Translations under genes and position numbers: made by a program
DNA from: Octopus vulgaris
Lineage: Eukaryota
Assembly (NCBI GenBank): GCA_951406725.2
Contig: OX597820.1
Location: 23,684,001-23,748,000, forward strand
Reading direction: 5' to 3'
DNA length: 64,000 nt
Notes under the pieces: generated by a model
Told to the model about the DNA's origin: nothing
Database searches by the model: none
Seen by the model: the letters and a program-made list of their open reading frames with translations, nothing else
Part shown: piece after piece, positions 11,601 through 60,907 of the stretch
How positions within the stretch are numbered: position 1 is the first letter of the stretch
How the letters are laid out: each line of letters opens with the position of its first letter

Positions 11601-14600
11601 GCTTGCTTCTCTCCTGACACATGGGAAGGCATAGCTATTGATCGTAGCAGGTGGAGAAGGATTGTGCACGAGGGGACAGTCACTTTTGAGAAATCTCAAG
11701 TTGCACATGAGAAAGTAAGGAGGGATGTCAGGAAGGGCATCGCTGTTACACTTCCAGATGGGAAGGGTCTTCCTTTGATGCTGACATGCAGTGTCTGTGC
11801 AAGACCCTGCCTCAGTAAAGCTGGACTCAAGAGTCATCTTCGTAGTCATTAAGCGAGACACATGAGTGACAACCTGGCCACTGGTGGTGGTGTAACACAC
11901 CATACTAATCATATCTGTCGGGCATGTGGAAGAGAGTGTAATTCGGCAGGAGGACTTAAACGACATGCAATGGTACATGAAGTCCAGTTACAACTACAGC
12001 CGGCTATTACCAGTAAAGGTTTTAGTTGCCAATTCTGTACAAGACGTTGTAGATCTTTGGCTGGGCTAAAAAGTCACATTCGATCACAGCACCAATAACA
12101 GTTAAGCTTCGTGCAATGGCCATACTCGATAACGTGGGGGCAGCCATAATATATATATATATATATATATCTTTATATGTGTATGTGTATATATATATAT
12201 TAATAGTAATGAATGAATGAGACCTCGATATTATGTAAGTAATTATTTGGTTGCCATAATAAAACTCTGAGTTTTGGGTGTCAGGGCGGAAATGTGCTCT
12301 GGCATCTCATCAGTTATTTTTTATTGTCTTATCAAAAATAACTGATGAGATGCCAGAGCAGATTTCCACCCCGACATCCGAAATTCGGAGTATTATTATG
12401 GCAACCGAATAATTGTCACATATTATATTACAGATTATTGTATTACAGATATACTTGGCTTTGTTAATGCTTACTTGCTTTTTTGCAGGTATGAAGTTCT
12501 GCGGTTTCTTATATCCAACTTAAGATGGTGGGTTGAAGAATATCACTTTGATGGTTTTCGTTTTGATGGTATCACATCAATGTTATATCACACTCATGGA
12601 ATAGGTTGGTATTCTGTGTATAATGTTTCATTCCTCTGATTCAATTTTTAATCTTTTTCTTTGCATCATTGTCTTTATCGTCGTCATCATCATTATCAAG
12701 TTGGCGAGCTGGTAGAATAGTTAAATTGGGCAAAATGCTTTGCAGCATTTCTTCTGGCTTGACATTCTGAGCACTGGTGTCAAAGTAATCCTCTAGCCCA
12801 CTCCCTCACAATTTCAGGCCTTGTGCCTGTAATAGAAAGGATTATTATTATTAACATCATGCCCAGAAGAAATGAGTAGAATAACAAGGAAATTTCATCA
12901 TATATTTAAAACTAAACTGTTTGATTAAATATTCTCTTTCCTTTTCTTTTTTTTCTTTTTGCCAGTTGTAAAATTGATGATGTCATTCCATCAAAGTGGG
13001 AACGCAGGTCGCCCTCGTTCAAACTTTTGAATTTGAATTTTTATGTTTCGCTTTTAATTTTCAACTCGGCAAAGACAGGCAAGCTATCGAAAACCAATAA
13101 AATGTCTATTGCAATTGCATCATGCTCTTTATATTCTCCATTTACCTTTGTGGGTAATTACATCAATCCTTTTTAAGATATTACTATTATTAGTATTATT
13201 CATCATCATCATCATTTAACGTCCGCTTTCCATACCAGCATGGGTTGGACGATTTGACTGAGGACTGGCGAACCAGATGTCTGCACTAGGCTCCAATCTG
13301 ATCTGGCAGAGTTTCTACAGCTGGATACCCTTCCTAACACCAACCACTCCGAGAGTGTAGTGGGTGCTTTTACATGCCACCGGCACGAGGGCCAATCAGG
13401 CACTGCTTATTTCCAAAGGTCTTGGTTACTAGTCATTGCCTCGGTGAGGCCTAATGTTTGAAGGTCATGCTTCATCACCTCATCCCAGGTCTTCCTGGGT
13501 CTACCTCTTCCACAGGTTCCCTCAACTGCTAGGGTGTGGCACTTTTTCACACAGCTATCCTCATCCATTCTCGCCACATTCCTATACCATTGCTGTCGTC
13601 TCTCTCGCACACCACATCTGATGCTTCTAATGTCCAACTTTTCTGTCGGGTATGCACACTGACATTACACATCCATCGGAGCATACTGGCTTCATTCCTT
13701 GTGAGCTTACGCATATCCTCAGCACTCACAGCCCATGTTTCACTGCCATGTAGCATGGCTGTTCACACACATACATCATACAGTCTACCTTTTAGTCTGA
13801 GCAAGAGGCCCTATGTCACCAGCAGAGATAAGAGCTCCCTGAACTTTGCCCAGGCTATTCTTATTCTGGCAGCTACACTTTCAGCACACCCTCCCCCACT
13901 ACTGACTTGGTCACCTAGGTAATGGAAGCTATCAACTACCCCTAGTTTTTCTCCCTATTATTATTATTATTGCTGGCAGAATCATTAGCATACTGAGCAA
14001 CATGCTTAGCAGTTTTTCATCCATCTTTACATTCAGGATTCAAATTCGGCCAAGGTCAACTTTACTTTTTATCTTTTCAAGTTCAATAAAATAAGTACCA
14101 GTTGAACACTGGGGTCAACCTATTGACTCATGTCCTCACCCAAACTTACTGGCCTTGTGCCAAAATTTGAAACCATTATTATTATTTTTATTATTATTAA
14201 ATTGGCAAGCTGTCAGAATTGTTAGCTTGCCAGATGAAGTGCTTAATGGTATTTCTTCTGCCACTACGTTCTGAGTTCAAATTCCGCCGAGGTCGACTTT
14301 GCCTTTCATCCTTTCGGGGTTGATAAATTAAGTACCAGTTACACACTGGGGTCGATGTAATCGACTTAATACCTATGTCTGTCCTTGTTTGTCCTCTCTG
14401 TGTTTAGCCCCTTGTGGGTAATAAAGAAATAGGTATTTCGTCCGTCTTAACATTCTGAGTTCAAATTCTAATAAGATCAACTTTGCCTTTCATCTTTCTG
14501 GGGTCAATAAAATAAATATCAGTTGATCACTGAGGATCAATGTAATCGATTATATATTTTTCAAACTTCTATTTTTTTCTTAGGTCATGGATTTTCAGGT

Positions 14601-17600
14601 CACTACGATGAATATTTTGGTTTGAACACTGATACAGAATCTCTGAACTATCTAACCCTTGCCAATTATATACTCCACAAGGCATATCCTTTTATAGTCA
14701 CCATTGCAGAGGTTTGTTACACTAATTTTTAATCTTGCATATTTTAATCTTGGCACTTCTATTTTGGCAGAGGTGAAATGATCCTCATAGATGAAAACAT
14801 AATGGATCATGAGTTCAAAATCCATTATTGACAGTAATTTGTTGTACTTCAAGGCAGAACACTTTGTTCTATAGTTCTTTTTATTCTCAGTTTTTCTCAT
14901 TCGTCTGTGCATGTAACAGCGATGCTCATCTACATTTACCACATAATGTCAAGACAAGGATACACACACACATACTTGCACACACCCTCACTCTCTCTCA
15001 CACACACACACACACACACACACACACACATTCATTCATTCATTTGTGAGGCTTTTTTTACAGTTTACATCTATCAAGTCCATTTACAAGGCTTTAGTTG
15101 GGCCAGAGCTATAATAGAAGACACTTGCTCAAGGTGCCATGCAGTAGGACAGAACCCCACAAACAACATGGTTGGGAAGCAAATTTCTTAACCACACTGA
15201 CATACCTGAGTGATTTTAACTAATCTATGTACTGTTAATTTTCTTTCCATCCAGGAAGTATCTGGAATGCCTGCTCTTTGCAGGCCTGTAGAAGAAGGCG
15301 GCAATGGTTTTGACTACAGATTAGCTATGGCTATACCAGACATGTGGATTAAGGTAAGATTGAGTAGAATATAATATAGTCAGTCTATGTTGTATCAGCT
15401 ATATTTACTTAATTATTTGTTTCTTTATTGCCCACTGGGGTACTAAACATAGAAGGGACAAACAAGGGCAGACAAAGGGATTAAGGCAATTACATCAACC
15501 CTAGTGCATAACTGGTACTTATTTAACTTGACCCTGAAAGGATGAAAGGTAAAGTCGACCTCAGCAGAATTTGAACTCAGAACGTAACAGCAGAAGAAAT
15601 ACTGCTAAGCATTTCGCCCAGTGTGCTAATGATTATGCCAGCTCATCACCCTATATTTACTTAATTATTGTTCCCCCATAATGGATTTTACAAACATTAA
15701 TGGGTTTCCACTAGTTCGTTTCATTTCTGGTGAGAAGAGTGCCAAAATATTATCTGTGCAACTTGGGTGAAATAAATACCACAAGGTATTACTGTTTCAT
15801 GCACCAATTTATTGGTTTTTATTTCCAATACATAGAAACACACATGCATGCACACACACTCTCTCTCTCTCTCTCTCTCTCACTCTCTCTATTTATCTAT
15901 CTATCTATCTGTGTGTGTGTGTTTTTGTCTCTCTCTCTATCTTACATTCACACACATACACATATTCATATATGTGCCCCTTTCTGAGATGACATGATTT
16001 GAATGAGATTAATCTGTTATTTTTAATTAGTCAGGTGATTACATGTATATATAGAGAGAGAGGCTCCTTTTCCTAGCTTGGTTGTGTATTAATGGTTTCT
16101 TAAATATATAGTGAGTTTTGTATGAAAAATGAACTGTTGATTAAATTGTGATAATTATTACTGCTGTTTAATTCTAGCTCTGTATGTTCTGGGTTGTTCA
16201 ATTCACACTGAGGTCAACTTTGCCTTTCATCCCTCCAGGGTCGATAAAATAAAGTACCCATCAGTACTTGAGTAGTACTTAATTTTGTCAATCTTGAAAG
16301 GTTGATAGGCAAAGTCGACCTTTGTAGGATTTGAACTCAAAATGTAAAAAAAAGTCAGAAAAATTATTGTAAGGTGTGCTAACCCACCTCTTTTGTTATG
16401 TAGTATAATAACACTAAGTATAGAATTATACTTACTGAGATGTGAGAAACGGAGTTAGTTTTCACAGCTGACAAAGTAGAATGTTGCAGAAGTCCATGTA
16501 TGAAATGATCCAATGACATCACTCATAGCTCATGTATTTACCAGTGGTGGCTCGTGTATAGGTACTGTGAAATTGCAGCACCCGCTATTTCCACTCAATA
16601 TTATCGATAATATTCAATATAATGAGTCCTTTTTTCTTTAATTCTTTCTTTATACTTGTACATTGTATAATCCTTTAGCTTAATGTCAGTAGCCATCCCC
16701 TAGTTTATGAAAATATACAAAAATCCTCCTATAGAACTGTGTGCTTCACAGTTCCAGCGATGTGGTGTTTGGCTGTTGTGCGCATGCTCATATGTCTGAG
16801 ATAGGAAACTTCAGACTAGGGAGAGAGAACACTGCGTGAATGACAGTGTCCTGTGAAAGGTGGTGTTCTTTTTTGACTCCGTGTGTGTTGTGCTTAAAAA
16901 TGTATTTATATTCTTGAATGTGATAAAATGTAGAATTAGATTATTATCCTGCTTCCAGCTTTAGTGTTGCTGCCAGTATTTGAAAAATAGGGCACATTTC
17001 CCCCCTTATTTTGTGATTTAGTGGGGATTTTTGAAAACAAGGGAATTCACAGTGGCGTTCAATGAACAAATTAAAACACATTACCCAGCAGTGCCTAAAA
17101 CACGAACTGATCAAGTTTATGTATAAATTTTCTTTTTATTTGTTTGTTTCCTGTTACACATTATCAAAACAATGGCTAAAAATTTTCTGAAGCAGCACCC
17201 CCACTAATATTATCTATGAGCTGCCACTGATATTTACACAAGTCTAGGTGGAGGATTTTCTCTTAGGACTATTTCTGCAGTGATAGGTCTTATCACATCC
17301 AATTACACTTGGACATGTTAAACATGACTTATGTGAATATATTATTTTCAATGCTGTTTTGTGTGACATTATTACTTTTTGCTTTCTTCAGCTCTTGAAA
17401 ACACAAAGTGATGAAGATTGGAATATTGGTGGCATCATTCACAATCTCACAAATATGCGTTATGGAGAGAAATCTATAGCATATACAGAGAGTCATGATC
17501 AAGCACTGGTTGGAGACAAAACTATTGCTTTTTGGTTGATGGATAAAGAGATGTACACATCTATGTCTGTTATGTCTCCACCTAATCTGACCATTGACAG

Positions 17601-60719: not shown

Positions 60720-60798
60720 TATATATATATATATATATATGCAGGTATGTTGATTCAAACAAGAAAAATAGAAAAATGAGTATATTTATATTTTCATT

Positions 60799-60907
60799 AA
60801 TATTTAGCAGAAGTAACAGAGTGACTCAAAGTTCAAGAGTTTTGTGCATTGTATCAATGCACAAAACTCTCAGACTTTGAGTCACTCTGTTACTTCTGCT
60901 AAATATT
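60799..60907. repeat. Fold-back palindrome (~53 bp arms)
   Basis: aatatttagcagaagtaacagagtgactcaaag...gtgcattg TAT caatgcac...ctttgagtcactctgttacttctgctaaatatt. Confidence 0.92.

Follow-up and report, generated by a model that had tools for sequence, protein, structure and literature searches.

Six long inverted repeats lie within a 64,000-nucleotide window of the Octopus vulgaris genome (GenBank assembly GCA_951406725.2, contig OX597820.1, positions 23,684,001 to 23,748,000 of the forward strand; GC content 37%, in a genome of 2.8 Gb). Our analysis indicates that each of them probably consists of two short copies, joined head to head, of the hammerhead-bearing end of a Penelope-like element (PLE), formed from start-to-tail complementary DNAs (cDNAs) by coupled priming. 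The six families, named A to F, are PLE ends with hammerhead motifs, a statement that is nearly certain for A, B, and C and made with high confidence for D, E, and F; a parent PLE was demonstrated for the first three and is likely for the others. Judging from their sequences, the short copies are likely cDNAs primed inside an uncleaved RNA and extended to its 5' end, and their ends probably correspond to the start points of transcription and of reverse transcription. PLE ends with hammerheads were already known; the fixed ends, the counts of tail asymmetry, and the G3-C8 and GCAA cores are added here.

An initial annotation of the window, made from the bare sequence, had listed the six palindromes. 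Self-BLAST of the window found inverted repeats at all six places, with arms 77 to 89% identical, and genome-wide BLAST showed all of them to be multicopy and none single-copy (copy candidates at first look: A, 1960; B, 471; C, 629; D, 299; E, 944; F, 1438). Exact-pattern searches gave 7501 matches for B, 2381 for D, 1955 for C, 339 plus 140 for F, and 9 for the intact core of E, with 0 for each reversed control. The limits first given proved too narrow, since one arm of each insertion bears a tail. The proposed association with (TA)n held for most palindromes, the exception being D, which lies outside (TA)n and has a 12-bp target duplication (39231-39242 and 39448-39459); most inspected copies of C, B, and F have (TA)n flanks. 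The features are as follows, with the position from which each palindrome was labeled in parentheses.

12200 to 12435: family A head-to-head insertion (12241), tail on the left arm; corresponds to the 3' end of a Hydra-type PLE.
12342 to 12392, plus strand: family A hammerhead, C3-G8; core 12342-12348, GAAA 12380-12383, near-palindromic stem III, predicted cut 3' of 12392.
39243 to 39447: family D head-to-head insertion (39243); tail on the right arm, both arms truncated 3' of the hammerhead.
45091 to 45363: family C head-to-head insertion (45091) in (TA)n; tail at about 45327-45363, 24-nt tandem duplication at 45210-45257.
45199 to 45228, plus strand: family C motif resembling a hammerhead, U3-A8; stem II of 4 bp, GCAA instead of GAAA, a palindromic loop III, stem I of 2 bp; its mirror image runs from 45192 on the minus strand.
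60444 to 60719: family B head-to-head insertion (60517); tail on the left arm, reaching 60444, past the limit first annotated.
60628 to 60664, plus strand: family B hammerhead, G3-C8; extra nucleotide after A9, GAAA 60655-60658, palindromic loop III, predicted cut 3' of 60664, 7-bp stem I.
60740 to 60910: family E head-to-head insertion (60799); tail on the left arm, fold-back inside loop II, core lost.
61023 to 61297: family F head-to-head insertion (61015); tail on the right arm, core on the minus strand (61143-61137) with A6G and GCAA.

A link to PLEs, already suggested in the initial annotation, was confirmed for families A, B, and C, which extend upstream into PLE coding sequence with a GIY-YIG endonuclease (EN). 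At one family C locus (L116), the order is (TA)n, an inverted truncated arm, a partial tandem, open reading frame 1 (ORF1), a frame for reverse transcriptase (RT) and EN, the pseudo-long terminal repeat (pLTR), the tail, and (TA)n; nine more inverted C pairs were found (L117 to L125), eight of them with EN or RT-EN frames between. The unbroken frame of 784 codons in L118 matched Pfam RVT_1 (3e-07) and GIY-YIG (3e-06), both above the cut-off, and pLTR copies of family C are 100% identical. The parent of family B (L274, L275, and L293) has a C-terminal GIY-YIG domain (2.6e-05, read at the EN end only), a Cys linker, and a promoter-like stretch, and its protein end is just 25% like that of C across 105 residues. 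The linkers, C-X4-C-X2-C in C and C-X3-C-X2-C in B, conform to the CX2-5CxxC pattern that precedes an EN with CCHH. For family A, locus L029 holds, in this order, a Hydra-type EN end (by motif only), a 3' untranslated region, and the A segment, plus an upstream inverted copy; of the Hydra-clade motifs, CxxC and CxH occur in L029, DKT was limited to a fragment that adjoins an A arm on its 5' side (L093), and the CxCX5C linker was not seen in family A. We take C to be a Neptune, B a Neptune or Nematis, and A, tentatively, a Hydra element, names that come from general clade features and from motifs in PMC8557442 rather than from an RT tree (this and all other papers are cited here from excerpts of their text). 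With coding parents for A, B, and C, three unrelated PLE lineages thus yield the same product, and D, E, and F have tails and one-sided ends like those of A to C.

The PLE remnants at 34.6, 37.4, and 53.8 kb had been put forward as candidate mobilizers. They turned out to be decayed Hydra-type fragments with stops, gave no tblastn match to the family C protein, and cannot mobilize the palindromes; the one at 34.6 kb is 56% like L029 across 23 residues. A metagenome scan with the end of the C protein returned 104 pattern matches and no relative. Internal Hydra-type ORF fragments are fused directly to the 5' end of A arms at two loci (L093:7520-7690 and L094:7350-7640), and these joints look as if reverse transcription had jumped elsewhere on the RNA. 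Splice-donor-like motifs lie just behind or within the hammerhead in the C leader (L116, minus strand) and in the D leader, and an AG precedes the ORF1 start in C; no joint for the guessed 5' intron of family C was found in contigs of four public runs, which cannot show RNA ends.

The family motifs, read from aligned genomic copies, all contain a type I core of the minimal-hammerhead kind, with C3-G8 in A and F, G3-C8 in B, and U3-A8 in C, D, and E. The minimal architecture with three different Watson-Crick 3-8 pairs between families, as originally proposed, was therefore borne out, and it extends to D and E, listed before merely as palindromes, whose genomic copies have U3-A8 although those in the window lack the core. 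With the D and E cores, a genuine prediction of the initial annotation thus came true. The cores CTGATGA (12342), GTGAACA (60628), and TTGATAA (45199) are where they had been placed, with the correction that the last is followed by GCAA rather than GAAA and has a stem I of 2 bp. The hammerhead parse at 12342 and 60628 also stands, not in its simple form: the former needs a 1-nt bulge in stem II and the latter an extra nucleotide after A9. The palindrome at 39243 has no part of its family's hammerhead, its GAAA lying downstream of the motif.

Family A combines C3-G8 with a 6-bp stem I, a bulged stem II, GAAA, and a near-palindromic stem III; its position 7 is variable (C in 23, U in 14, and A in 6 among 52 arms, not de-duplicated). 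Family B has G3-C8 (in 45 of the 49 cores that could be read), an extra nucleotide after A9, GAAA, a palindromic loop III, and a 7-bp stem I, and its loop II differs among subfamilies, with stem II kept. U3-A8 is accompanied in C by GCAA (1955 matches versus 0 with GAAA) and a 2-bp stem I; in D by a 5-bp stem II, GAAA, a 3-bp stem I, and an extra nucleotide after A9; and in E by GAAA and a 4-bp stem III. The palindromic loop III or stem III, initially annotated as a common trait, is thus present in A to D and F and replaced in E. Family F, with C3-G8, has GAAA in one subfamily and GCAA in others (339 GCAA matches versus 140 others; GAAA in 88 of the 100 listed among these 140), and the subfamily in the window adds A6G to GCAA (19 of 33 arms). 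The standard core, a Watson-Crick 3-8 pair with GAAA, is found in A, B, D, E, and one F subfamily; family C and the window's F subfamily lack its GAAA. Stem II with G10.1-C11.1, a palindromic 15.1-16.1, and U16.1-H17 plus stem I are present in A to D, with stems I of 6, 7, 2, and 3 bp, respectively. In F the 10.1-11.1 pair is variable, and one compensatory change in stem II was seen by eye (61 C-G versus 26 U-A of 92 F-type rows, 100 matches listed). Covariation of the 3-8 pair across copies, expected from the initial annotation, was not seen inside any family (in D, counting by eye, 90 of the 100 listed copies had U3-A8 and one had C3-G8); the pair covaries only between families.

A strict hammerhead descriptor gave 0 matches in the window, and the Rfam search that had been suggested found no hammerhead there among 63 matches, just sub-threshold microRNA-type ones. 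With a relaxed descriptor, loosened post hoc after the families had been seen, the window gave four matches (B, C on both strands, and one at 49815) versus one in 20 shuffled windows; shuffling every one of the six family majority sequences 3000 times gave 0. The relaxed descriptor matched four of the six majority sequences (A to D) and, among distinct copies, 1 of 17 in E and 1 of 27 in F; by this sequence measure family E is old. Minimum-energy folds and co-folds of single A to D copies recovered stem II in all four, a result that says nothing on catalysis. The match at 49815-49850 (U3-A8, GCAA, 2-bp stem I) has no counterpart in the fetched loci and may be due to chance. Elsewhere in the genome, a small tandem (G000:C2:207585035-207585543) has a C3-G8 core with GCAA and is unrelated to F.

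We then scored the 5' ends of the short copies in two samples: 99 distinct C arms from the first 100 pattern matches on contig C1, all but three of which were fetched, and 76 B arms from the first 31 Mb of C1, picked by a pattern downstream of the cut site. Of the 60 C arms that have a long leader, 37 end at -8 to +3 relative to the A of a TCAGAT motif, an A that follows a TATA-like box by 30 nt; 15 extend over 20 nt further than that A, and 8 end elsewhere. A C variant without 47 bp behind the TATA box (11 arms) has the position 30 nt behind the box (TATA+30) about 8 nt before the anchor, next to the core. A second cluster of starts lies at this very position; it comprises most of the remaining 28 of the 99 arms (within 18 nt of the anchor) and the window copy, both arms of which presumably begin at the start site of the short-promoter variant. 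Indirect sequence evidence assigns this core-proximal cluster to the short-promoter variant, and the start in C seems to shift with the promoter deletion. In B, 39 of 76 arms end 17 to 27 nt before G3, within 6 nt of the A at -23 in TCAGAT, which is 30 nt behind a TATA-like box, and 18 of 30 BLAST-picked B arms end within 3 nt of the TATA+30 A. Ends at 4 nt or less from the predicted cut were found in 2 of the 76 arms and ends past 35 nt in 7 (by eye, 4 true read-throughs and 3 alignment artifacts); 6 of the 76 were cargo copies of one junction. Short F copies start 0 to 12 nt before the core in 16 of 20 cases, with a TATA box at -37. A comparison of pattern counts (1955 versus 354) as a sign of a 5'-end hot spot was dropped, since upstream promoter variants confound it. 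Fixed TATA+30 ends of PLE copies were not found in our literature searches.

At the other end, a tail of 35 to 50 nt is present on one arm only, and the fold-back points vary among copies, which is the known inverted-pLTR structure. A single arm carried the tail in 39 of 44 pairs of C and in 16 of 17 pairs of B, against about half predicted by an independent choice of two starts; 17 of the C pairs were BLAST-picked, and the window copy was scored as tail-less merely through its duplication. C arms within an insertion differ by a mean of 0.9 changes versus 3.4 between insertions (22 pairs), and a rare C variant is present as both arms in four insertions (8 of 18 matches). An inverted copy within 200 nt upstream was absent for 54 of 93 C arms.

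We propose the following series of events. A TATA-like promoter in the pLTR would start an RNA about 30 nt downstream, 3 to 57 nt ahead of the hammerhead core. The protein would nick both strands of AT-rich DNA and prime at two internal RNA sites 35 to 50 nt apart, as has been seen in vitro for a lizard PLE. Priming at the 5'-proximal copy of the sites would run off the 5' end of the RNA and give a cDNA of 110 to 200 nt with a fixed start. Two such primings, one per site, would be coupled, and the 3' ends of the cDNAs would join by microhomology; with one priming per site, one arm of the pair would receive a tail and the other none. Each insertion likely produces its head-to-head pair afresh, through the RT-EN that the element itself encodes, and the short copies, without an upstream promoter, are likely dead on arrival. 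Coupled priming on the same or on sibling RNAs fits both matched and mixed arm pairs. The templates would be mostly uncleaved, and the core may decay (GAAA to GCAA, then A6G) while spread continues; family C has GCAA throughout and yet identical pLTR copies, so core decay is compatible with spread.

Several observations weigh against this proposal. The start site was deduced from spacing and insert ends, not from RNA, and the B and C samples come from one contig. Family A ends are spread (4 to 40 nt in 21 of 30), a TATA box at -30 is missing from the D start in the one or two copies seen that extend upstream, and no coding parent of D or F was found within 1.5 kb upstream in the four D and four F loci listed. 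In C, the 28-arm cluster includes misclassified and medium-leader arms, and its tail haplotype is shared by one long-leader sub-lineage (5 of the 15 long-leader short arms that have a tail). Four of roughly 14 young B pairs combine arms with two loop II variants that exist side by side (L311, L314, L328, and L330), so a single template cannot explain every pair; these were read by eye, because many arms could not be classified by the haplotype patterns (90 of the 99 table rows had gaps, and 22 of 35 pairs were not classified). A particular D junction, whose end lies 4 nt behind the predicted cut, was present in 8 of 20 loci (the query contained that junction) and could reflect a cleaved template or a propagated hairpin. 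Finally, the internal promoter of D. virilis Penelope lacks a TATA box (PMC2377424), so that transcription of short copies in other families is conceivable.

The same parents could also give rise to the palindromes by snap-back, in which one cDNA primes itself to copy the second arm, the reverse transcript from the 3' pLTR simply stalling near the hammerhead hairpins. The rare variants shared by both arms, the microhomology and micro-duplications at the junctions, the fold-back of E in loop II, and the self-priming proposed for rotifer PLEs (PMC3846280) all speak for it. We consider it rather unlikely, as the ends track TATA+30, whose distance from the core is 57, 23, or about 8 nt, and not a constant distance from the hairpin, and as the four mixed B pairs have arms of two variants; snap-back may still explain part of the pairs.

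The initial annotation had favored families of non-autonomous hairpin retroelements, in which the palindrome would be transcribed and copied as a unit by PLE proteins. pLTRs can mobilize other DNA in trans (PMC3846280), and the recurrence of certain centers would be in keeping with such units, yet on the whole this explanation is very unlikely. Most junctions are unique and differ between copies, A, B, and C continue into PLE coding sequence, and the short copies have no upstream TATA-like box. The exact C center of the window is shared by 30 sites, versus 1955 arms in all, and a shared center is expected from two arms ending at one start site; the D junction that recurs with different flanks has its tail on either arm. 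One B junction is present in 648 exact copies, of which the seven examined share both flanks, and we rejected it as a self-propagating hairpin because it is cargo of a larger unit. This unit of about 2 kb (L049, L309, L312, L345, L347, L348, and L351; e.g., L312:1-2133) holds one B hairpin, pieces of short interspersed elements, and a family A tail; the three loci compared share at least 1.4 kb ending in a hairpin and CTAG, with a TC start in L049, ends from which we take the carrier to be Helitron-like.

Scarcely credible is a reading of the palindromes as miniature inverted-repeat transposable elements (MITEs), i.e., DNA transposons with long terminal inverted repeats inserting at TA and matching a hammerhead by chance, which the inverted arms, TA-rich flanks, high copy number, and blank strict-descriptor and Rfam searches would suit, but which is at odds with asymmetric ends, variable centers, many solo arms, parents encoding RT and GIY-YIG, the 12-bp duplication at D, and cores in families not picked for them (D and E), and which is already largely refuted for A, B, and C.

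Canonical PLEs with a C-terminal EN share with the octopus elements the RT and GIY-YIG domains, the partial tandem, the inverted 5'-truncated copy, a tail of 30 to 40 bp at one end, (TA)n targeting, and TATA and initiator-like pLTR motifs (PMC8557442 and PMC3846280); the closest types are those with a Neptune/Nematis-type linker for B and C and the Hydra clade for A. These excerpts describe 5' truncation without a fixed start, whereas the octopus copies mostly run for 110 to 200 nt from start to tail with a sharp 5' end, and family C differs in having two frames. The minimal hammerheads of metazoan PLEs (PMC4209133) are likewise of type I, with an extra nucleotide after A9 (as in B and D), G10.1-C11.1, a palindromic 15.2-16.2, and U3-A8, and they occur mostly as single motifs, with opposite-strand pairs 100 to 700 bp apart; they lie in pLTRs and have low activity. 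The G3-C8 core of B and the GCAA cores of C and F were not found in the excerpted text or supplementary alignment of that paper. Natural U3-A8 hammerheads are known, and the excerpt of PMC3088659 names no A13C. Our literature searches for natural G3-C8 in PLEs or for A13C found only a G3-C8 mutant, and surveys of PLE variants may already list G3-C8 or GCAA. PAc, a Poseidon element of the green anole (PMC11167929), also has two internal reverse-transcription starts that define the tail, extension of both strands, and an uncleaved RNA template; its C3G/G8C double mutant is partly active, and hammerhead mutants still insert, so that the hammerhead is not needed for insertion. PAc is an in vitro system, while the octopus evidence consists of traces left in the genome by three PLE lineages, the far end of the cDNA being fixed. 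Animal non-LTR retrozymes (bioRxiv 10.64898/2026.07.22.740005) are non-coding, hammerhead-bearing, and pLTR-derived as well, and form head-to-tail tandem arrays where the window copies form head-to-head pairs. A retrozyme-like head-to-tail array of about eight B units, 165 to 190 bp apart with (TA)n spacers, was observed at one locus (L050).

The window also holds a seventh inverted repeat (7805-8036; terminal arms of about 45 bp, in TA/CA repeats, with a related copy in L011), which we presume to be a Tc1/mariner-type MITE, and a fragment at 53036-53335 (minus strand) that we take from its motif to be a mariner-type transposase. Two frames, 28967-29668 (minus strand, 233 codons) and 46976-48904 (plus strand, 642 codons), presumably encode C2H2 zinc fingers, and the stretches at about 10.6, 12.5, 17.4, and 19.4 kb are presumably exons of a glycogen-branching-type gene.

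The role of the hammerhead and the inverted insertions of PLEs are described as open questions (PMC8557442 and PMC11167929). One idea, which we hold to be unlikely, is that the PLE hammerhead mainly pairs two RNAs through the loop III palindrome so that a dimeric RT-EN primes both target strands. Cleavage would then be secondary and even damped, since a cut would remove the capped 5' end. If true, this would explain the one-tailed head-to-head pairs, the arms of two variants, the uncleaved templates, and the passage of two lineages from GAAA to GCAA with stem II and the palindrome kept. Against it stand the palindromes of just 4 to 9 nt and the Naiad PLEs, which have no hammerheads and insert as inverted structures (PMC8557442). 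Under coupled priming, thousands of young copies fix both ends of the product, with two priming sites at one end and TATA+30 at the other, and the promoter deletion serves as a natural control. Family C, young and with an unbroken frame, together with the natural G3-C8 and GCAA cores, provides ready substrates for work in vitro. The findings also suggest a simple origin for the numerous solo and opposite-strand minimal hammerheads in animal genomes.

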